A DNA stretch of 64,000 bases from an uncultured archaeon (GTDB taxonomy: Archaea; Thermoproteota; Bathyarchaeia; Bathyarchaeales; Bathycorpusculaceae). The number at the start of each line of letters is the position of its first letter. Positions within the stretch are counted from its first letter, which is position 1. The position numbers and the translations under genes are program-made. A model generated the notes under the pieces. The model ran no database searches and was not told the DNA's origin. It saw only the letters and a program-made list of their open reading frames with translations. Positions 27,726 through 36,543 of this stretch are shown here, in pieces. The DNA lies in the NCBI GenBank assembly GCA_963782915.1, contig CAWALK010000023.1:1-64000 (forward strand). The letters run 5' to 3'.

Positions 27726-28814
27726 TTGCCTTATTGTCGAAGATGCGGAACCCAACTTGAAGAAGACGCCCGTTTCTGCCATAAATGCGGAACCCCCGTA
27801 GTCACCTATGTCCCACCGGCAGCCTACACTCCACCCGTTCAACCTGTTCAATCAGCACCGCATCGGCCTTGGCATAAAGACCCCTACATCGTCGCCGCCA
27901 TAGGTTTAGTAGTCATACTTCTTTCAGCCGCAATCGTCGTTGGCCTTTTGGTAGCCCCATGGGGTTCATGGAGCACAAGCGACTCATTTGCGGATACCAA
28001 CCCAAACATAGACACTGTTAACGTGAATTTTGTAACTGACATCGGCCGCGTAAACATAGCCACAATGCAGATGTCCGATAGCAACATCGGAATCTACGTT
28101 TTGGCGAATGGTTCACGAGGCATTATGGGCGGCTCAGATATTCCAGTTACCATAACCTTTGACAACCAAACAGTTGGCAGCACCTTAAACGTCAACTCAA
28201 GAGTCACCATAGAGAACGCTTATACTTCAAGAGCGGACGTTACCTGCCAAATCTTCGTTAATCCAGCATTAAAGCTCAACCTAAACGTTACCTCAACCAC
28301 TGGACATGTCAGTTTCACCGCGGACAAAGCCACAACCATACAATCCCTAAACCTCCAAACCACCACAGGCGAGGTTGAAGCTAACTTGCAAGGCAACATA
28401 ACCATCGCAGGCGACATATCCCTTCGAACCACAACCGGCGCAATCAATTACCGCATGAACGAAAACGCAGTTTCAGGCAACCACACCATTAACTTGCAAT
28501 CCACAACCGGTTCAGTAACCCTCGACATCACCCAAACCAAAACGTTATCGGGCAACCTGCAAGTTAACGCAGCGGCAACCACAGGCTCCGTAAACGTCGG
28601 CTTAATCATCGACGGCGGCGTCTCAGCAAAAATCATCAGCCAAAAACCCGCATTAGGAAACATACACACCAACCTAAACAACTTCCAAGGAAACAACACA
28701 CTGCTACAATCAAACAATTACCCCTCAAATAGCATCATAGAAATCAACAACAGCGCAGTCACAGGCAGCATAAACATAAACGCAAACTACAAAACAACCA
28801 CAATCGCTTCCTAA
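27726..28814 (+). CDS. zinc-ribbon + TM + adhesin-like (DUF4097-type) beta-repeat protein
   Basis: CRRCG...FCHKCG, TM helix, repeated xTTTGxV. Confidence 0.8.
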   Translation: MPYCRRCGTQLEEDARFCHKCGTPVVTYVPPAAYTPPVQPVQSAPHRPWHKDPYIVAAIGLVVILLSAAIVVGLLVAPWGSWSTSDSFADTNPNIDTVNVNFVTDIGRVNIATMQMSDSNIGIYVLANGSRGIMGGSDIPVTITFDNQTVGSTLNVNSRVTIENAYTSRADVTCQIFVNPALKLNLNVTSTTGHVSFTADKATTIQSLNLQTTTGEVEANLQGNITIAGDISLRTTTGAINYRMNENAVSGNHTINLQSTTGSVTLDITQTKTLSGNLQVNAAATTGSVNVGLIIDGGVSAKIISQKPALGNIHTNLNNFQGNNTLLQSNNYPSNSIIEINNSAVTGSININANYKTTTIAS

Positions 28815-28882: not shown

Positions 28883-29122
28883 TTGGCACAAACAAAAAAA
28901 GTAACTCGCCAAGAACTCGAAGAAAATAACGGCCAAAACAGCAAACCGGCATGGTTCGCTTACCAAGGAAAAGTCTACGATGTATCCGACAGTAGCTTCT
29001 GGATGGACGGCGAACACATGAGCATGCACAACGCCGGCAAAGACTTAACAGAAGACTTGGAGATGGCGCCGCATCGCGAAGAGAACTTTGCGAAGGTTAA
29101 ATTCGTCGGCGAATTAGTCTAA
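28883..29122 (+). CDS. cytochrome b5-like heme/steroid-binding protein
   Basis: GKVYDVS, W.DGEH...H.AGKDLT..L..APH. Confidence 0.85.
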   Translation: MAQTKKVTRQELEENNGQNSKPAWFAYQGKVYDVSDSSFWMDGEHMSMHNAGKDLTEDLEMAPHREENFAKVKFVGELV

Positions 29123-30354
29123 AAAAGGCATTGAAGCACAGAATCAATCCGCCGCAAATCCGTTAACACATTTTTTACTTCTTCTTCCGGTAGGGTTTGG
29201 CGTTTCTGGTGTATTTCAGATACGGTTTGGCATAGGGTATCGAAGGCGCCTTTTAGGTCTAAGTCGTTGTTTAGGTGGGCTTCGAATTCGCCGGTGAGTC
29301 TGCCAACGAAGGAGTCGCCCATGCATTTGTCTGAGGGCTGTTTTGTTTCCTGTAAATCCGCAATCATGCCGCGTAAGTCATCTAATTTTTTGGTTGTTTC
29401 CGCCAGTTTTTCATAGGTGAAATCCAACTCGTCACGGTAAGGCCCATAAATCAAGTAGAAACGTAACTGCGCGCCACTGAAGCCCTTAGCTACCACGTCG
29501 CTTGTGTAATACACGTTGCCAAGGCTTTTGGACATTTTTTCGCCGTTCACGAACAGGTGGCCGCCGTGCAGCCAATACTTTGAGAACTGCTGCCCAGAAA
29601 CCGACTCCGCAATCGCAATGGTGTAATCATGGTGGCGTACTAAGTTGTCGATGCCCCCACAAGCCACATCAATACTAAAGCCCAAATGTTTGGTGACGAT
29701 GGCGGCGTCTTGAATATTCCACGCTGGCCTTCCATTGCCAATGGGTGTATGGTAGCAGATGTGTTCGAGTCCGCAGCCATGCCAAACGATGAAGTCACCC
29801 ATGTTCCAGGGGGTGCCGGGATAGGTGTCTTTGTGGTATCGGCGATGCCGCTTAGGCCACTTCGACATGTCGAGATGAGCCAGTTTTCCGAAACCGCTGA
29901 ATTTAAGCGGGTTAAAATACGCGTTTTTTATGCCTTGATAGGTGTACCAGTAAGCGTAGCCGGTGTCGATGAGTTTCTTGATTAGATTGGCCGCTTGCTC
30001 TACCGCGTTAGATGCCCTTATGGGGTAATCGGGTTTTTTGATGCGGAGCAATGCGAAATCTTTGAAGAAGGTTGCTTCGTTTTTCTGTGTGAGTGCCTCC
30101 ACTGATAAGCCTTCTTTTTTGGCTTGCAGAATTGCTTTATCCTCCACATCAGTCAACGTCATGAGACGAGTCACTTTGTAGCCTAAATATTCAAGGTACC
30201 TTTGCAATATGTCTTCGAAGAGAAAAGTGCGGTAGTTGCCGATGTGTGCCCGCTGATAAGTCGAGGGACCACACGTGTACATTTTGACTTGTTTGTCTTC
30301 GGCGGGTTGGAAGGGCTCTACTTCTCGGGTTAAGGTGTTGTAAATTTGGAGCAT
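29119..30354 (-). CDS. cysteinyl-tRNA synthetase-like paralogue (class I aaRS catalytic domain + DALR, no anticodon domain)
   Basis: YNTLTR, YTCGPSTY, HIGN, KMSKSLGN retained; GRPAWNIQD and RHHDYT replace GWHIEC and PHHENE. Confidence 0.85.
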   Translation of the reverse strand: MLQIYNTLTREVEPFQPAEDKQVKMYTCGPSTYQRAHIGNYRTFLFEDILQRYLEYLGYKVTRLMTLTDVEDKAILQAKKEGLSVEALTQKNEATFFKDFALLRIKKPDYPIRASNAVEQAANLIKKLIDTGYAYWYTYQGIKNAYFNPLKFSGFGKLAHLDMSKWPKRHRRYHKDTYPGTPWNMGDFIVWHGCGLEHICYHTPIGNGRPAWNIQDAAIVTKHLGFSIDVACGGIDNLVRHHDYTIAIAESVSGQQFSKYWLHGGHLFVNGEKMSKSLGNVYYTSDVVAKGFSGAQLRFYLIYGPYRDELDFTYEKLAETTKKLDDLRGMIADLQETKQPSDKCMGDSFVGRLTGEFEAHLNNDLDLKGAFDTLCQTVSEIHQKRQTLPEEEVKNVLTDLRRIDSVLQCLF

Positions 30355-30363
30355 AACTGTCGC

Positions 30364-30849
30364 CTAAGTTGGGGTTGTAGTTAGTTTTTCTTCGTTTGAG
30401 AGCTGCTCCAAAGTATGCTTCGCTTCTTCCACATGCCGCTGCGCTTGCGTCTGCGAATTAAAAATATGACGTACAACCCCTTTCTTATCGATAATGTAGG
30501 TTACGCGCCCCGGAATAATACCCATGGTTGCTGGGACACCGTAGAGTTCACGGACCCTGTTGTCTTTATCACTGAGCAAAATGAATGGCAACCCATAATG
30601 CGTTGCAAACGCGATATGCGACTCTATACTCTGCCCACTTACACCCAGCACTTCTGCGCCCAAATCAGCCAGCTGCTCATAGTTGTCGCGGAAGGTGCAG
30701 GCTTCTTTAGTGCAGCCCGGCGACTCATCCTTGGGATAAAAATAGAGAACAATGTTTTTTTTGCCAAGATATTCGCTAAGGGTAACGTTGTCGCCCATTT
30801 GGGATGGTAATGTGAAGTCTGGGGCTTTATCGCCGACGTTGACTGTCAA
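30364..30849 (-). CDS. bcp: peroxiredoxin, BCP/PrxQ family
   Basis: YFYPKDESPGCTKEACTFRD, GRVTYIID. Confidence 0.93.
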   Translation of the reverse strand: MTVNVGDKAPDFTLPSQMGDNVTLSEYLGKKNIVLYFYPKDESPGCTKEACTFRDNYEQLADLGAEVLGVSGQSIESHIAFATHYGLPFILLSDKDNRVRELYGVPATMGIIPGRVTYIIDKKGVVRHIFNSQTQAQRHVEEAKHTLEQLSNEEKLTTTPT

Positions 30850-30905
30850 AAATGTTCACCACAAAATAGTGGCTGCATAGGGCTTTTATGTTTTTTGTGC
30901 CTCGC

Positions 30906-32033
30906 GGCTTTGGGACAAAAGTGGTTTGAGCTATTTTTCTTTGGTTGCCCCTTTTGAGTGATTGCGAGATAGTGAAGATATGCTTTTTGCAGTCTAGAGT
31001 CGCATGAGAGTTGATTGTGATAGGCTTATAACTAGCATCTGGTTTTATGCTTGAGCTATTAAGCTGACGGTTAAAAGCACCAAGGAGATGCTGCAGGTCC
31101 TTGACGAAACCAAAGAAGAGTTCTTCAAAGATAGAAAATGCGTCTACCCCTACACTGAGTGGGAGCATAAACGAGCCCAAATCAAAGAACGCCTCCACCG
31201 ACTCCCAGAATACGTACACCAAGCCGTAGAAGCCATAAACCGTGAAGAACAGAAAATGGGTCGCCCACCCAAACTTGATCTGGAAAAGAAAGTAAATCTC
31301 TTCATACTTGTGAGGTTTCTCAACAAATCTAACCGCCTTGCAGAGGAGTCATTGCAGTATTTTCAGCCCCTCTTTGGGGTTGATGTCAGCTACAAGTACA
31401 TCGAGCGCCTCTATGGCGACCCAGAAGTCAAGTTGGTACTTCATAACCTCTTTGTTTTGTTGCTCAAAGAGGAGGGCACAAGCGGCGATTATGTTGGGGA
31501 TGGAACAGGCTACTCTGTTAGCGTTGAAAATCATTATCGCACTAACCCTAACAAGTATGGGAAAAAGTTTGTCCATTTCTTCTCGCTGATTGATCTGGCG
31601 ACTGGGATGTATGTTGGTTGCGGGGTGTCGCGGTTGTCTGAGTGGGACGCTTTCACCAAAGCAGTCGACATGCTAAGAAGTATTGGCGCAGCCATCAGAT
31701 CCATTCGTTTAGACAAATACTTTAGCAGTCGAAAAGTCATTAAAATGTTTGATAGAACGGTTTCTTTGTTTCTGATTCTAAAAAAAGAACATCAATAGGA
31801 TCGGCGCTTGGGCAGATATTTTGACTAGAATGATGGCTTCTCCGGTTGATTTTCTATCAGAATATTTCCATCGAAACATTTCTGAGAGCGGTTTTTCAGC
31901 TGACAAAGGAAGATTTGGCAGCCTAGTTAGGCAGAGACGAGAAGACAGACAACAGACTGCACTTTTCTCAAACGCTCTCTTCCACAACGTCTATGCCATA
32001 AGAATTAACCCAAAATAGTTTTGTCCCAATGCC
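30906..32033 (+). mobile_element. insertion sequence (about 1.13 kb, archaeal DDE, ISNCY/IS5-like)
   Basis: TIRs GGCTTTGGGACAAAA (30906-30920) and TTTTGTCCCAATGCC (32019-32033), 14/15 match; 9-bp TSD GTGCCTCGC at 30897-30905 and 32034-32042. Confidence 0.93.
31088..32018 (+). CDS. DDE transposase (+1 indel in an A7 run near 31780)
   Basis: GRPPK, SYKYIERLY, GDGTGYS, LDKYFS, RNISESGFSADK. Confidence 0.85.
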
Positions 32034-32539
32034 GTGCCTCGCCTTAAATAAATAATTTAATTAGCAACAAATAAATCATAATTTAAGAAAACTAGCATCT
32101 ATTGAGGGTGATTCCGGTCCAGTCCATAATTTCCATTATCTTGGGCACCTTTTTTGTAGTTGGTTGTTGGCTGTAAATCAATTGCTGAAAGTGATTTTCG
32201 AATGTTCGACTCAGAACCGCTGTTAAAGATTAAAAAAGGGGTTTTTTACTGGGTTTGCTGAGGCTTCTGGAACTATTTCTTTAGGGAGAAAGAAAAAGGA
32301 AAACTGCAACATACGATGACTGCATAAATCGTAAGTGCTATCCGTAAGCCTACTCAGCCCCAGTTTACTTGCCATTGAAAAGAAAAAAGTAGGTAAAGAT
32401 TGGTTTTCATTTGTTTTTCACCTTATTGGTCGTTTTCTAAGGGTAAGCAGCATTAATACGGCGACTACTAACAAAAGATAGCGCACGTCTTCTTGCATGT
32501 CTGCCTTTTTGGGCATATCTCATTATTCTCCTTATTTGC

Positions 32540-33007
32540 TCAAGTTTGAAATTGAACCTCCTCCTTAATTTGCGAGGACCTCAATTCCTTTGCACCCATT
32601 TTAAATCTAATCTCTTCAATTAACTGTACATAATTTATTGATGAGGACTTGCGACGACTCTTTATTGCTGAAAAAATGGACGTTACAATATCCAAGACTT
32701 CAGCCCCATCCCCAAACTCCAAATCTTCTTTATTATCATCCTCTGATTGATTGTCTTCAATAGATGGATAATTCCAATTAATCCAAAATTCAGTATTATC
32801 ATTTCGCGCAAAAAAATTAAATTGAATTTCACCTTTCTTTGTAAAACTTTCTTTATATTCAAAAATTATGTATGAATTTGTAACTGATTTCTTAATTTTT
32901 AAGTTCCTTAATCCAGTGCCTTGTAAAACCTCGTGCACTCTAGAATAAGCTTGATCAATGGGACCAGAGGTTAAAAAAATCTTTTTAATACTTTCTCTTG
33001 AAGACAT
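32540..33007 (-). CDS. hypothetical protein (very AT-rich)
   Basis: 155-aa ORF with GGTGA upstream. Confidence 0.6.
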   Translation of the reverse strand: MSSRESIKKIFLTSGPIDQAYSRVHEVLQGTGLRNLKIKKSVTNSYIIFEYKESFTKKGEIQFNFFARNDNTEFWINWNYPSIEDNQSEDDNKEDLEFGDGAEVLDIVTSIFSAIKSRRKSSSINYVQLIEEIRFKMGAKELRSSQIKEEVQFQT

Positions 33008-33519
33008 TTTTATTCACCGGTAGATTCTTGGTTCAATACTTTCCTTGATATATGTAATAATTGCTCACTCGGAAGGAGTCTTACTTATATCCGAGCAAAT
33101 CACCCGAATGATTACGCTTTGCGTCTCCCTGCACCAAATCCGCTGTGTTCTCCAACATATGGAAAAATGGATTTAGCGTTCAAAAGGTGTGATCAGAATT
33201 TTTTTGAAGGGTGCTACTGAAAGAAAAGCCAAAGAACAAAACAGGCCTGGCTACCTCATTGATTTAGCGTATGATAGGCTTGTGTGTATCTCTCTTGGAT
33301 GTCGGATAAGGGTTTTATTAAGATAGCTCATAAAGGGTTTGTTCACTTATCAAAATAAAGGTGTAGAGGCATACACTGATCTGGTTCGCTGGATTCTAAA
33401 GTATGTTGGACATCTTGGGTTTTGAAGGCTTAGACCAAGAATATAAACCGGCAAAAAAATGTTTTTGTCAAAAAACTCCTTCTGAGTGAGTTCGCCTTTT
33501 ATTCAATGTTACGATTGGC

Positions 33520-35406
33520 ATGGAGGGCGTCATAAAGGTGCAATTAGTAAACAGGCGTGTGTTCATCCAAAATAGCTATAAACAATTGATCGTTTCCTTA
33601 CTTTTTTTGGTCGCCTTTTTGATTGTTTTAATTCTATTTTATCCACCAAATTTATGGGTCGATAATATAATTGGCTTTTTTAATTCCTTCACTAATACTG
33701 TAGCTCTATTGACAGCCATTGGTTATGTTGGTCTTTTTGTTATTGTCTTTGCTGAAACAGGGCTGTTTTTTGGGTTCTTTTTACCCGGTGACAGCTTGCT
33801 TTTAGCAGCAGGTATTCTAGCAAGCCAAAATCTCTTCAATATCTCTGGGATAATGGTAGTTGTAATTGTAGCAGCGGTAATCGGAGATAGCTTCGGTTAT
33901 GGGTTTGGGCGAAAGGTTGGTCCAATGTTTATTAAAAGAGAATCACGCTTTTTGAATACACAAACGGTTGAGTCTGTCAAAGCCTTCTATGAGAAGCATG
34001 GGCCAAAGGCTATTGTTTTCGCGCGTTTTGTACCACTTGCACGAACATTTGCACCCATTCTTGCAGGGGTAAGCAAAATGAGCGGTAAAAGATTTTTTTG
34101 TTATAATATAGTTGGCGGGTTACTGTGGGGTGTAACTTTGCCAATGCTTGGTTACACTGCGGGGAAGATTATTCCAGATATTCAACTCTACATTTACCCA
34201 ATTATCGGTTTAATTATTGTGGTTTCAATCCTTCCTTGGTTAATCAAAATTTCTAGAATGAAGAAGTCTTTTTCTTGGAGAACAGGATTCGCGCCTACTC
34301 GATTTAAGCCGGTAATTGGCTTTTCGAGGAAAATGGCTGATGCCGAGATCCAACGAGAGCAAAAACCGCCAAGTAAATCGACACGAATCCTAAAAATCAC
34401 AATTCAAATAGTGGTTATGGCTGTAATCTTTGGGGTGCTGTTATGGTTTGTAGGTATAGGTTCGCTCTATGACGCCTTGCTAAATATCAAGATAGAATAC
34501 TTGATTTTGGCGTTCTTTATGTATTTTGGAATTAACGTCTTCTTTACAGTACGGCTAAGACGTGTTCTAGCTAAAGACGGCATCAAAACTTCTTTCGGAA
34601 AAACACTCCTAGCCCAGTATGCAGGCATGTTAACCAGCGACGTTACTCCTGGACGCTCAGGATACATTCTAATGCCTGTTTATCTTCGAGACCAAAACGT
34701 GCCAACCTCAAAGGGGCTCTCAAGCATTTTAGGTATTCAAACAATTGAATTTCTATTCAAAGTAATTGGTGGATTGGGGGCAGTAATTTTCCTAGTTCAA
34801 ACGGTGCCCGCACAAACATGGAATACTTTATTCCCCCAAACAGTTGCTGGAATCAACATCGGCATACTAGTTGCAGGGTTAGGCATATCTTTGATGCTTG
34901 TAGGAGCTGTTGTGTTAGCAGCTTTTACATGGTCAAAAAGGGCTATTACCATATTTGATCGCCTTACAAATTTAAAATTCCTTAAGAGATTTACAGGGGG
35001 CTTAATGGATAAACTTGAAGAATACAAAGAAAGCTCTCATAGCACCCGCCGAGTAATCCCTGAAATAATTGGTTTAACAATGATATGCTGGATCCTCAAA
35101 GGTTTGGAATGGTACTTCTTAGGCTTAGCCTTGGGAATTGGGGATGTGCCATTGATCGCCTTTTTCCTTATACATCCATTGGTAACAGCATTAGCGTTTG
35201 TTCCCATCACTCCTGCTGGAGCAGGGGTTCAAGAATTCGGAATTATCGGAATCCTTGGTCTTCTAGGTGTTGCAGTAGGTCCAGCTGGCGTCTTTGCTTT
35301 ACTTGCTCGCGGCTTACTCATGATTGAAGACCTTGTAGGAATACCGCAGATCGTTAAATCAACAAGTATTATCTTTTCACGTAAAACCCTTGAATTATCT
35401 AAATGA
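33520..35406 (+). CDS. DedA/VTT domain fused to lysylphosphatidylglycerol-synthase TM (UPF0104 flippase-like) domain
   Basis: FAETGLFFGFFLPGDSLL, ARFVPLART; then DVTPGRSG, PITPAGAGVQE. Confidence 0.85.
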   Translation: MEGVIKVQLVNRRVFIQNSYKQLIVSLLFLVAFLIVLILFYPPNLWVDNIIGFFNSFTNTVALLTAIGYVGLFVIVFAETGLFFGFFLPGDSLLLAAGILASQNLFNISGIMVVVIVAAVIGDSFGYGFGRKVGPMFIKRESRFLNTQTVESVKAFYEKHGPKAIVFARFVPLARTFAPILAGVSKMSGKRFFCYNIVGGLLWGVTLPMLGYTAGKIIPDIQLYIYPIIGLIIVVSILPWLIKISRMKKSFSWRTGFAPTRFKPVIGFSRKMADAEIQREQKPPSKSTRILKITIQIVVMAVIFGVLLWFVGIGSLYDALLNIKIEYLILAFFMYFGINVFFTVRLRRVLAKDGIKTSFGKTLLAQYAGMLTSDVTPGRSGYILMPVYLRDQNVPTSKGLSSILGIQTIEFLFKVIGGLGAVIFLVQTVPAQTWNTLFPQTVAGINIGILVAGLGISLMLVGAVVLAAFTWSKRAITIFDRLTNLKFLKRFTGGLMDKLEEYKESSHSTRRVIPEIIGLTMICWILKGLEWYFLGLALGIGDVPLIAFFLIHPLVTALAFVPITPAGAGVQEFGIIGILGLLGVAVGPAGVFALLARGLLMIEDLVGIPQIVKSTSIIFSRKTLELSK

Positions 35407-35455
35407 AAGATTGACTGAAAATCGTTTTAGAAAAAACCATATGTCCATAAGTAAT

Positions 35456-35829
35456 TTACACTTTCTGTTTTTTATTCTGTTTGCCTCCTAGATTGATGGC
35501 TTTTTCTTCATGGCACAAGACCAAAGGCTTATGTAAAAGTAGACCTTCGACTGACTTCAGCAATTGATAGCCAAAGAGTATTGCTGCAAAGTAGGTAGAC
35601 CACAGAATGATTGGCCAATTGCTCGGCGTTTAATTCCACAAACCTGTCGAGACAGCAAAAAACTCCACAATGGCCAAAGACACCATTCCACCCAAAGCAA
35701 GAAAGACCTGTTCTTTTGCCTCATGTTTTGAATTCCATTTTCGCCGCACAATCAACAGAACTGCCAAGCACATAGAAAAGCAACAAAGAGAATGTACCAG
35801 TTGGCATTGAAATCCAATATTATGTTCAT
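35456..35829 (-). pseudogene. small membrane protein remnant (frameshift near 35765 and TAA at 35630-35632)
   Basis: MNIILDFNANWYILFVAFLCAW / LLIVRRKW...VEFFAVSTGLWN*TPSNWPIILW. Confidence 0.45.
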
Positions 35830-35886
35830 GCCTTACAAAAAAGGCCTACAATATTAAAATTTATCCTTAAAAAGTGCCGCGCTTAA

Positions 35887-36543
35887 ATGTTATTAATGCC
35901 TATGCTCATAGCTTGCCATAGGCGACGCAGGTTGGAAGAGAAAACACTTCACATTCAAGGTTACAAATGCCAAGCTCTTTATCATAAAGCGGCGGGGATG
36001 CCGATTGTTTTTCTGCATGGCTTATCGTATAGTGTCGGTGTGTGGGAACGCATCGGCGTCACAGATTTGCTTATTGAGAAGAAGGTGCCGTTTCTTGCAC
36101 TGGATATGCCGTATGGGTCAAAAAGTCAATGCCACCCCAAAACAAAAGACCCCCAAGCCAACGTAGCCTTCGCTGCAGAAGCCATACAAAACATACTCGG
36201 CTCCGAAGTGCCGGTATTGGTCGGTGCAAGCTTGGGCGGCTACATCGCACTCAACTATGCCGCGGCACATCCGGTTAAGGGGCTTTTTTTGGTCGCGCCT
36301 GCCTACGCATTCGACAACGACGAGTTGGTAAAAGCATATCCGGGGTTCAAATTTCCAGTCCGCATCGTATGGGGCACAAACGACAACGTTATCTCAGGCG
36401 AAGAAATGCGCACCCTAGCCGATAAGTTGCCCAACGCCAGAATGCTCGCCTACAATGGCGCAGCACATTCAGCGTATACTGATCAGCCTGAATGGTTCAA
36501 ACGCGACTTACTCTCACTCTACGCCACTGCCGAAACAACTTAG
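35887..36543 (+). CDS. alpha/beta hydrolase
   Basis: VFLHG, GASLGG, WGTND, AAHSAY. Confidence 0.88.
   Translation: MLLMPMLIACHRRRRLEEKTLHIQGYKCQALYHKAAGMPIVFLHGLSYSVGVWERIGVTDLLIEKKVPFLALDMPYGSKSQCHPKTKDPQANVAFAAEAIQNILGSEVPVLVGASLGGYIALNYAAAHPVKGLFLVAPAYAFDNDELVKAYPGFKFPVRIVWGTNDNVISGEEMRTLADKLPNARMLAYNGAAHSAYTDQPEWFKRDLLSLYATAETT

Follow-up and report, generated by a model that had tools for sequence, protein, structure and literature searches.

A distinct clade of cysteinyl-tRNA synthetase homologues without the anticodon-binding domain in a few Bathyarchaeia genera, with a remodelled pocket and stress-gene neighbours

Truncated paralogues of aminoacyl-tRNA synthetases have proved time and again to carry out new biochemistry, as in MshC, Glu-Q-RS, PoxA, and the cyclodipeptide synthases. 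MshC is the cysteine:GlcN-Ins ligase of mycothiol synthesis, and its Zn site is presumably Cys/Cys/His (motifs GWHVEC and PHHEYS). The Zn ligands of cysteinyl-tRNA synthetase (CysRS) itself are taken here to be C28, C209, H234, and E238. The Bathyarchaeia are, to our knowledge, abundant and uncultured archaea of sediment and peat, and very little is known of their redox and stress biology.

In the available portion of a review, CysRS is described as employing a Zn-thiol contact (PMC7373986). The available part of Mukai et al. 2017 (PMC5389517) describes CysRS* of the Desulfobacterales, an additional CysRS copy in which the anticodon-binding domain is missing and the CP1 region is altered. Its gene lies downstream of selB*, which itself comes after the selC* tRNA-Cys(UCA), and the enzyme is thought in that text to charge selC* with cysteine; the same text reports that tRNA was charged in vivo by an engineered CysRS that lacked the anticodon-binding domain. 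Glu-Q-RS (YadB), as presented in the accessible text of PMC9437257, is a truncated class-I GluRS paralogue that has no anticodon domain and aminoacylates a non-canonical site.

The window, i.e., the whole stretch of 64,000 nucleotides that was analysed, carries a CysRS homologue designated PAR. The gene and its neighbours are listed in Table 1.

Table 1. Features of the PAR locus, with positions counted from the first nucleotide of the window
Feature	Position	Strand	Description
Zinc-ribbon protein	27726..28814	+	362 aa; Pfam Zn_Ribbon_1
Cytochrome-b5-like protein	28883..29122	+	79 aa; Cyt-b5 46.5 bits (Pfam)
PAR (CysRS homologue)	29119..30354	-	Single open frame, 411 aa; CysRS-like class-I ligase without anticodon-binding domain; pocket WNIQD / DVACGG / RHHDYT
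Spacer from bcp stop to PAR start	30355..30363	-	9 nt
bcp/PrxQ-type peroxiredoxin (CxxxxC)	30364..30849	-	161 aa; AhpC-TSA 135 bits (Pfam)

PF01406 matched residues 15-321 of PAR with 256.2 bits, compared to a Pfam gathering score of 27. On the cysS profile TIGR00435, PAR scored 310.4 bits against a cut-off of 340, and the other members of its family scored 260-316 bits, so that all those scanned were under the equivalog cut-off. The match covered profile positions 1-400 of 466; therefore, the final ~66 positions, which make up the anticodon-binding domain, are missing. Likewise, the alignment to E. coli CysRS (1li5) stopped at E. coli residue 391 of 461. Apart from the canonical cysS, nothing in the genome gave a separate match to profile positions 405-466, which rules out a split gene with a detached anticodon domain. 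An assembly error is ruled out as the cause of the shortening by ~120 relatives of equal length, in agreement with the first-pass annotation, which saw no obvious indel artefact in the truncation. The AlphaFold model of PAR had a pLDDT of 91.6, and its top Foldseek matches were CysRS (TM 0.84-0.87) and MshC (TM 0.83). The Rossmann, CP, stem-contact, and helical-bundle domains were all found. The annotation had placed the end of the protein after the DALR helices, and the helical bundle is indeed present in the AlphaFold model and the E. coli alignment, although Pfam scores no DALR_2. A protein atlas search returned only CysRS and MshC-like clusters. There were 15 longer matches, with 33-38% identity; the five inspected for motifs (P0273, P0281, P0283, P0286, and P0132) read WH[IL]EC with HH..E, and no PAR-type fusion was found among them.

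The residue alignment to 1li5 confirmed that the adenylation motifs and the first Zn ligand are intact, as had been read at first. HIGN (PAR residues 37-40) and KMSKS (residues 273-277) are invariant in the family, and so are the ATP-motif residue Asp236 and the alpha-amino-acid contacts Gly29 and Thr68. HIGN is no distinctive trait of PAR, since it is common to most of the canonical archaeal CysRS compared. Among the pocket residues, C28, T68, W205 (W212 in PAR), H234 (H241), and H235 (H242) are kept. H206, E208, C209, and H224 are replaced by N213, Q215, D216, and A231, and in the second motif P233, E236, N237, and E238 are replaced by R240, D243, Y244, and T245. The WHIEC, DIHxGG, and PHHENE signatures of CysRS read WNIQD, DVACGG, and RHHDYT in PAR, and these remodelled motifs, already noticed in the annotation, recur in every family member examined, far beyond chance.

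The PAR family comprises ~126 relatives, with identity down to 41%. WN[ILV]QD occurs in 126 of 127 alignment rows (query to P0127), 125 of which also have RHHDY and CGG. The invariant residues among 33 members with 41-84% identity include C28, G29, P30, H37, G39, N40, T68, W212, N213, Q215, D216, C232, R240, H241, H242, D243, Y244, K273, M274, and K276. At 25 positions, PAR is at least 90% fixed for a residue borne by at most 10% of the canonical rows; nine of these (T31S, Y155F, K192H, H206N, E208Q, C209D, P233R, E236D, and N237Y) are 90-100% fixed for a different residue in 58 canonical CysRS rows. The dN/dS of PAR, compared with a 93% relative, was 0.043 at a dS of 0.77, indicating strong purifying selection. 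A decaying pseudogene is ruled out by this value and by the invariant motifs. In the phylogenetic tree, which contains no MshC sequence, PAR forms its own clade (SH-aLRT 99) outside the Bathyarchaeial canonical CysRS, in agreement with the earlier proposal that WNIQD/HHDY defines a clade. A conserved and monophyletic clade under purifying selection is not what a decaying copy would leave. The nearest neighbours in the tree are anticodon-domain-less DPANN-type CysRS (a set of 32 rows, SH-aLRT 98). PAR is therefore a distinct and uncharacterised clade of anticodon-domain-less CysRS homologues, found in a few Bathyarchaeia genera. Full-text literature searches found no account of the family.

A PAR gene was detected in 9 of the 401 phylum genomes, spread over three genera, and in 6 of the 151 class genomes; its own genus had it in 5 of the 11 genomes searched, the window genome (G000) included. 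The window genome has a separate canonical cysS, as the annotation had asked to be looked for, and an intact full-length cysS is present in the eight further PAR genomes (G038, G078, G090, G007, and G152-G155). In the window genome, the canonical cysS, located in C20:322252-323641, has a 1-nt frameshift in the assembly, caused by an insertion. Since this gene evolves at a dN/dS of 0.08, the frameshift is probably an assembly error. Among the contigs of 88-95% relatives over the gene, one reaches the frameshift site and ends there. If the frameshift is real, PAR would be the sole CysRS-like gene in the window genome, which counts against the reading preferred below. For SepRS/SepCysS, nothing was above the profile cut-off. 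PAR is accessory; it works beside the housekeeping CysRS and not as its replacement. Among the sequencing runs listed, none carrying the locus was an RNA run, and none contained more than 0.18 of the sampled words.

The PAR gene starts directly behind bcp on the same strand, as had been reported. The spacer lacks space for a promoter of its own, so the two genes are probably co-transcribed, and the spacing in relatives is similarly tight, mostly -8 to +43 nt. A promoter and terminator scan gave nothing over the shuffled expectation bearing on a bcp-PAR operon. The peroxiredoxin scored 108.8 bits on NCBIfam PRK09437, which is under the cut-off. In 53 of the 100 loci where the upstream gene is visible, this gene is a bcp directly before PAR and co-oriented with it. 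The cytochrome-b5-like gene is convergent with PAR and overlaps its stop by 4 nt; in tblastn searches it abutted PAR in 37 of 42 loci, six of them without bcp. The window genome carries two more cytochrome-b5-like paralogues. The arrangement of bcp, PAR, and the convergent cytochrome-b5-like gene belongs to one subclade, in which the annotation's two suggested partners were borne out as conserved neighbours, and PAR followed by dinB belongs to another. The dinB gene, encoding a Y-family DNA polymerase, is downstream of and co-oriented with PAR in 17 of 102 loci, with seven different gene clusters upstream; the PAR of G090 is one of the dinB-linked members, and the neighbours in this subclade also include ferritin/Dps-like, nitroreductase, and FMN-reductase genes. 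The zinc-ribbon cluster (c7) is downstream of PAR in most subclade-A loci; beyond this conserved synteny, no evidence for a functional tie to PAR was found. Much of the bcp/cytochrome-b5 synteny falls within a longer gene block conserved in related genomes, so part of it may be inherited order and not a functional link. Moreover, 33 of 114 loci have none of the three recurrent neighbours, which also counts against the preferred reading.

A shortened CysRS relative with a rebuilt pocket, a normal enzyme alongside, and stress-gene neighbours has probably taken on a new ligase job. We tentatively favour the reading that PAR is an adenylate-forming ligase that has become neofunctionalised, may still use cysteine, and has an anionic acceptor not chosen by an anticodon; in this reading, amino acid, metal, and acceptor are all inferred. 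PAR would use ATP to activate an amino acid as its aminoacyl-adenylate, the simplest candidate being cysteine or a near analogue with a thiol. Trp212 would bind this amino acid together with a metal site of three ligands (Cys28, Asp216, and His241), as in MshC. The aminoacyl group would then be passed to an anionic acceptor on the basic CP loop, which reads KWPKxxRRxHKDTYPG and is invariant in PAR. The acceptor would not be a tRNA picked by its anticodon, and the product may serve the oxidative or DNA-damage response. A non-tRNA acceptor is plausible, and the strongly basic CP loop would also suit a tRNA acceptor stem.

The latter possibility leads to the reading that PAR is a stress-specialised CysRS isozyme still making Cys-tRNA-Cys, reading the acceptor stem and U73 via the basic CP loop without anticodon reading. 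It would be a back-up of the housekeeping enzyme, expressed with peroxide and DNA-damage genes, and with one thiolate metal ligand instead of two it would be less sensitive to oxidation. That a CysRS can function without the anticodon domain is indicated by the engineered variant active in vivo in the available text of PMC5389517. DPANN metagenome-assembled genomes have ~410-aa forms named cysteine--tRNA ligase, which are the closest tree neighbours of PAR and score over the cysS cut-off (354-393 bits for P0129, P0133, P0155, and P0156); these truncated enzymes probably charge tRNA. The net charge of the CP domain was +6.0 in PAR, +4.3 in the DPANN-type forms, and -2.5 in canonical CysRS, and since the basic loop is common, in weaker form, to these DPANN forms, PAR may just still bind the tRNA acceptor stem. 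Retention of C28, W212, H241, and T68, the occurrence of Asp at the C209 position in full-length cysS-scoring proteins, the stress-gene context with a patchy and dispensable distribution, and the frameshifted canonical cysS of the window genome also suit an isozyme. However, the refixing of nine CysRS-fixed positions, at which the DPANN-type truncated forms mostly retain the canonical residues, is unexpected if both substrates are unchanged. The scores of all scanned PAR members under the cysS cut-off also tell against it, as do the change of Asn237-Glu238 to Tyr followed by Thr or Asn, a likeness to MshC, which acts independently of tRNA, and the window genome's single ordinary tRNA-Cys(GCA) with no odd tRNA seen. 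We consider the isozyme unlikely.

It is about equally improbable in our view that PAR activates another amino acid or a modified cysteine (homocysteine, cysteine persulfide, or sulfinate), with its Zn site lost or enlarged and with a tRNA or a small molecule as the acceptor. Of the Zn set, PAR keeps C28 and H241, and C209 and E238 are changed to D216 and T245; with two of the four presumed ligands altered, cysteine may not be the PAR substrate, and this counts against the preferred reading. Position 245 varies among T, N, and A across the family and is hence not a ligand. C209>D, E238>T/N/A, H206>N, E208>Q, and H224>A/G together remove or change a large part of the first and second Zn shells, and the pocket gains polarity through N213, Q215, D216, D243, and Y244. 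Nevertheless, loss of the thiol-metal contact would leave the invariance of Cys28, Trp212, and His241 difficult to account for, and no additional tRNA gene is nearby, the 64-kb window containing no tRNA gene. Every one of the Zn-site changes is matched in some cysteine-specific relative: Asp in place of C209 also occurs in full-length proteins that score 428-487 bits on cysS, and Tyr plus Ser at 237/238 occur in MshC. Therefore, the different amino-acid substrate supposed by the first-pass annotation is not required.

Compared with the preferred ligase reading, an MshC-type step is a narrower form, in which cysteine joined to an amino-sugar or similar amine would give a new archaeal low-molecular-weight thiol that reduces Bcp. 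The likeness to MshC drawn earlier held for the length and for two pocket positions, the Tyr and the Ser/Thr, which were seen in no canonical CysRS (PHHEYS..AESVTG in MshC and RHHDYT..AESVSG in PAR). It did not hold for family membership, which is ruled out: PAR scored 186.3 bits on TIGR03447 against a cut-off of 485.1, the other PAR members scored 134-189 bits, and none of 19 candidate proteins scanned reached the MshC cut-off. The suggested redox or low-molecular-weight-thiol pathway draws support from the bcp operon, which is conserved in one subclade, and from the PIG-L deacetylase family (the MshB/BshB family), present in 5 of 6 PAR genomes compared with 46 of the 145 class-sample genomes without PAR. 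This enrichment is not strict, since the closed genome G090 has PAR without PIG-L and the PAR-less G102 and G127 have PIG-L. The conserved PAR neighbourhoods contain no glycosyltransferase, deacetylase, or acetyltransferase partner, and the other subclade pairs PAR with dinB and no thiol enzyme. Furthermore, Asp stands in place of Cys231 of MshC, the CP loop is basic where that of MshC is acidic, and a main redox buffer would hardly be expected to occur in only 5 of the 11 genomes within a genus. The contexts of PAR fit oxidative/DNA-damage stress better than a thiol biosynthesis cluster, and a thiol pathway of this kind is quite unlikely. Finally, many aminoacyl-tRNA synthetases make Ap4A as a side reaction, and the stress-gene context and a basic loop as a possible binding site for a triphosphate would suit an alarmone or regulatory enzyme, in which a second nucleotide attacks the aminoacyl-adenylate to give Ap4A-type dinucleotides, or mainly a stress sensor, but the coordinated, fixed changes of the amino-acid pocket are unneeded for such activity, so this is highly improbable.

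Returning to the neofunctionalised ligase, we speculate, with more doubt than on the ligase as such, that PAR could join MshC and CysRS* as the third functionally distinct class of CysRS paralogue, namely a stress-induced, metal-dependent ligase of cysteine or a thiol amino acid that uses a non-canonical anionic acceptor in the peroxide/DNA-damage response with Bcp and DinB. The acceptor might then be a small phosphorylated compound, with a new protective thiol of archaea as the product, or a site on RNA or another nucleic acid, as for Glu-Q-RS. PAR has two hallmarks of changed function: residues fixed in CysRS have been refixed, and the gene is paired, in an operon-like manner, with one for a peroxiredoxin or a translesion polymerase. 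The protein is small, has a confident predicted fold, and should lend itself to expression, so that direct tests of its amino acid, metal, and acceptor are possible.

Compared with canonical CysRS (TIGR00435; E. coli 1li5/1u0b and archaeal-type 8qhp), PAR shares the fold, HIGN, KMSKS, C28, T68, W205, and H234, and differs by the missing C-terminal anticodon-binding domain, the changed pocket, and a basic CP loop with extra residues. Glu-Q-RS belongs to a different synthetase family and is a mechanistic analogy only; nothing in this analysis shows an action of PAR on a modified nucleoside. CysRS*, compared by its description in the available text, is likewise an extra copy without the anticodon domain, whereas neither a tRNA gene nor a selB-like gene lies close to PAR, and no EF-like neighbour was found in 114 PAR loci. 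MshC (TIGR03447; 3c8z and 8hfm) has 413-414 aa, close to the 411 aa of PAR, and both are without the anticodon domain; they have in common Tyr at Asn237, Ser/Thr at Glu238, and the loss of His224. However, MshC is actinobacterial and PAR archaeal, with no msh-like partner genes adjoining it. MshC retains GWHVEC with the second Cys ligand (Cys231), where PAR reads AWNIQD with Asp216, the His being kept; the opposite charge of the two CP loops was counted on the alignment. A Micrarchaeota protein, P0167, is intermediate in its motifs (WNVQC and NHHENT). The anticodon-domain-less CysRS of DPANN archaea (P0129, P0155, P0133, and similar) resemble PAR in their ~405-415 aa and basic CP domain, but differ from it in retaining WHIEC and HHENE.

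PAR, the CysRS-like protein of the window, was encoded by one uninterrupted ORF, listed in the table together with the other features. The CysRS catalytic domain PF01406 (Pfam) was matched at 256 bits and the NCBIfam cysS equivalog at 310.4 bits, which was below the cut-off of 340; only positions 1-400 of the 466 in the cysS profile were covered. In the alignment, the C-terminus of PAR corresponded to residue 391 of 461 in E. coli CysRS, directly ahead of the anticodon-binding domain. The AlphaFold2 model was confident (pLDDT 91.6), with TM scores of 0.84-0.87 to CysRS structures and a slightly poorer 0.83 to MshC, the cysteine ligase of mycothiol synthesis. The first-pass annotation had described a 411-aa ORF without frameshift, 9 nt behind the peroxiredoxin gene bcp and lacking the anticodon domain, all of which was borne out. 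The comparison it drew with MshC did not extend to family membership, since the MshC equivalog (NCBIfam) gave 186 bits vs. a cut-off of 485.

Coordinates of PAR and of the features discussed with it (window positions, unless a contig, C, of the same genome is named)
Feature	Position	Strand	Description
PAR	29119..30354	-	uninterrupted ORF, 411 aa
bcp	30364..30849	-	ORF, 161 aa; Pfam AhpC-TSA
bcp-PAR spacer	9 nt	-	sequence
cytochrome-b5-like gene	28883..29122	convergent to PAR	79 aa; Pfam Cyt-b5
insert	30850-35931		~5.1 kb, between bcp and the hydrolase gene
ORF in insert	31088-31798		236 aa, single copy, no Pfam match
alpha/beta-hydrolase gene	35932-36540
canonical cysS	C20:322252-323641 (1489-2911 of locus L001)	- (L001)	split into 155-aa and 323-aa ORFs
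cytochrome-b5-like paralogue	C1:98662-98886
cytochrome-b5-like paralogue	C18:257301-257498

About 120 clusters of relatives at 68-95% identity were retrieved by a word-indexed search, nearly all of 407-414 aa, from Bathyarchaeia MAGs and named cysteinyl-tRNA synthetase or class I tRNA ligase family protein; an exhaustive search yielded further representatives at 41-52% identity. In the joint alignment (query to row P0127), WN[ILV]QD was present in 126 of 127 rows, and CGG and RHHDY were present too in 125, which removes the earlier concern that the substitutions might not be conserved. Position 245 varied among T, N and A, and position 231 among A, G, V, H and N. Across 33 members at 41-84% identity, 58 residues were invariant, including the other pocket residues, and the basic CP loop was nearly so. 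Against a 93%-identical relative, dN/dS was 0.043 (dS 0.77). A decaying copy was thus ruled out by motif conservation and dN/dS. Two MAGs each carried two PAR copies on separate contigs (L064 and L073; L067 and L071), which may represent duplication or strain mixing.

A maximum-likelihood tree (LG+G4, quick search) was built from 93 rows without MshC: 25 PAR, 10 other forms of ~405-430 aa, 24 from loci, Bathyarchaeial and other, and a diverse set of 34 canonical proteins. PAR formed a single clade (SH-aLRT 99), as the first-pass annotation had asked of a tree, with the long-branch P0235 as sole additional member, and was placed outside the Bathyarchaeial canonical CysRS. Together with the other anticodon-domain-less forms it made up a set of 32 rows (support 98), and its neighbours came from DPANN MAGs (Micrarchaeia, 'Candidatus ainarchaeum'). 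These DPANN forms retain the WHIEC and HHENE motifs, with cysS scores of 354-393 bits, whereas PAR has a changed pocket and scores 310.4. One of the neighbours, P0167 (Micrarchaeota, 405 aa; cysS 278 bits, below cut-off), had a pocket midway between CysRS and PAR, reading WNVQC, DITVGG and NHHENT. Four genomes of other Bathyarchaeia families held a second CysRS-like copy of ~410-422 aa, 32-36% identical to PAR, which is a different anticodon-domain-less paralogue (G111:C12, G128:C79, G134:C15, G137:C90). Fusions of ~760-780 aa, joining a cysteine-synthase-type PALP domain (PF00291) to CysRS, occurred in DPANN (Nanoarchaeota, Woesearchaeota; P0273-P0282, P0132), with a canonical pocket in all three inspected (P0132, P0273, P0281); P0283 was a CysRS fused to a family-2 glycosyltransferase, and P0286 had an N-terminal SIS domain.

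The genome also carried the separate canonical cysS that the first-pass annotation had suggested looking for, with WHIEC, DIHCGG, PHHENE and the C-terminal domain; SepRS and SepCysS, its other suggestion, were not found above cut-off in the genome (best 44.6 and 33.4 bits). ARAGORN detected a single tRNA-Cys(GCA) genome-wide, and the window held no tRNA. The canonical cysS was split by one extra base in ...GGCTATCGCATAC..., and the same base was present in the closest relative (G151, PAR 93% identical), where cysS had five further single-base insertions and the adjacent lipoate-ligase-like gene was also split. With the insertions removed, the two cysS genes gave dS 0.73 and dN/dS 0.08. Since a gene broken since the common ancestor would not give this dN/dS, we interpret the frameshift as an error of assembly or base calling, or else as a very recent change; a systematic assembly error could account for the shared base, as could a conserved +1 shift. 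Intact full-length cysS accompanied PAR in G038, G078, G090 and G007, and also in G152-G155 (500-512 bits); G148 showed a 197-aa piece only.

Sampling of the class (151 genomes) gave PAR-level matches in 6, and sampling of the phylum (401 genomes) in 9, which all belong to three genera. In the window's own genus, five of 11 genomes searched, this one included, had PAR, although in one of them (G489) the match was partial and contained an internal stop; PAR was not found in the six others, which were 90-97% complete. Because of this patchy presence, PAR is an accessory gene, frequently absent.

The neighbourhoods of 122 loci were compared: the window itself, 36 loci of species genomes, 5 that the class scan had yielded and 80 metagenomic ones. 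The PAR ORF was called in 114. The linkage to bcp and cytochrome b5 proposed earlier recurred, but in one subclade. Of 100 loci in which an upstream gene was visible, 53 had bcp in that place, directly adjacent and on the same strand, mostly at -8 to +43 nt; of 102 with a visible downstream gene, 48 had a convergent cytochrome-b5-like gene after PAR. Among the first 42 loci, tblastn placed the latter gene against PAR in 37, six of them without bcp; in the window it overlapped the PAR stop by 4 nt. All such loci fell in the subclade whose identity to the window protein is about 55% or higher. Since many lay inside a longer conserved block (GyrI-like, UDG-family, methyltransferase, hydrolase, bcp, PAR, cytochrome b5, Zn-ribbon, MetRS, PHP), part of this linkage may be inherited gene order. 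Two further cytochrome-b5-like paralogues, 50-52% identical, were present in the genome, and PAR-less relatives had homologues too (48-60%). The insert upstream of bcp, with GC down to 0.36-0.40, also held an ORF of 155 aa and encoded a membrane protein of 628 aa; in the 93%-identical relative (L040), the hydrolase gene was only ~105 nt from bcp. The insert may have displaced the native bcp promoter.

In the second subclade, at 45-50% identity, a Y-family DNA polymerase gene, dinB (IMS/DinB, Pfam), followed directly on the same strand in 17 loci, at -29 to +19 nt and with seven different upstream gene clusters, a pattern typical of conserved two-gene units. Genes upstream of PAR here included nitroreductase, SDR and PhoU-like ones, with a ferritin/Dps-like gene one further. 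Outside this set, PAR was followed by a convergent FMN reductase gene in L065 and L117, and by a convergent cation-efflux gene (CDF, zinc-transporter dimerisation domain) in metagenome loci L152 and L153, which may hint at a link to metals. No locus had both bcp and dinB, and 33 had none of the three recurrent neighbours. No recurrent glycosyltransferase, deacetylase, acetyltransferase, tRNA or elongation-factor gene was found across the loci examined. Rather than forming a biosynthetic cluster, the loci share a theme of oxidative and DNA-damage stress.

As the first-pass annotation had noted, the pocket motifs are replaced, by AWNIQD, DVACGG and RHHDYT. Aligned one-to-one with E. coli CysRS, PAR kept C28, T68, W205 (W212 in PAR), H234 (H241) and H235, and changed H206 to N, E208 to Q, C209 to D216, H224 to A, P233 to R, E236 to D, N237 to Y and E238 to T245. 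HIGN and KMSKS were both present, HIGN being the usual archaeal form and no peculiarity of PAR. Since the alpha-amino contacts G29 and T68 and the ATP motifs are intact, PAR is expected to form an adenylate from an alpha-amino acid. We take the four Zn ligands of CysRS to be at the Cys28, Cys209, His234 and Glu238 positions. Four full-length proteins (P0186, P0241, P0242, P0256) likewise have Asp at the Cys209 position; three of them were scanned and gave 428-487 bits on cysS. These precedents, the invariance of Cys28, Trp212 and His241 in PAR and the likeness to MshC make plausible a three-ligand site (Cys, Asp, His), in which the substrate thiolate would complete the coordination. The general principle of a Zn-thiol contact in CysRS is confirmed by a review (PMC7373986). 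The CP domain had a net charge of +6.0 in PAR and +4.3 in the DPANN-type forms, against -2.5 in canonical enzymes. Such a basic domain suggests that the acceptor is anionic: a tRNA acceptor stem and a phosphorylated molecule would both fit.

We favour, at somewhat less than even confidence, PAR as an accessory, stress-linked adenylate-forming ligase. It would derive from an anticodon-domain-less CysRS, probably still adenylate a thiol amino acid, and hand it to an acceptor chosen without an anticodon. An oxidation-tolerant, anticodon-independent CysRS isozyme is unlikely. At 25 positions, PAR was at least 90% fixed for a residue present in at most 10% of 58 canonical rows, and nine of these (T31, Y155, K192, H206, E208, C209, P233, E236, N237) are 90-100% fixed otherwise in canonical rows. 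Because such residues were replaced together, and are mostly kept in the truncated DPANN enzymes, the alignment speaks for a new function and against an isozyme. A changed amino-acid specificity is as unlikely as the isozyme. A genuine thiol pathway of the MshC kind, which would be a special case of the ligase account, is improbable, and an alarmone or regulatory role is very improbable.

Full-text searches, covering main texts, gave no description of the PAR family. It is absent from passages of PMC5424206 and PMC8762117 that treat how cysteine is encoded in Bathyarchaeota and DPANN, and those of PMC9437257, PMC5389517 and PMC2922099 name as CysRS paralogues only MshC and CysRS*, the second copy of Desulfobacterales. 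The cysteine-specific MshC reads GWHVEC, DIQGGG and PHHEYS..AESVTG, where PAR reads AWNIQD, DVACGG and RHHDYT..AESVSG. Tyr at 237, a hydroxyl residue at 238 and the loss of His224 are common to both and absent from the canonical CysRS seen here; however, the CP loop of MshC is acidic by count on the alignment, whereas the CP domain of PAR is basic. PAR belongs among the truncated synthetase paralogues, a kind already known.
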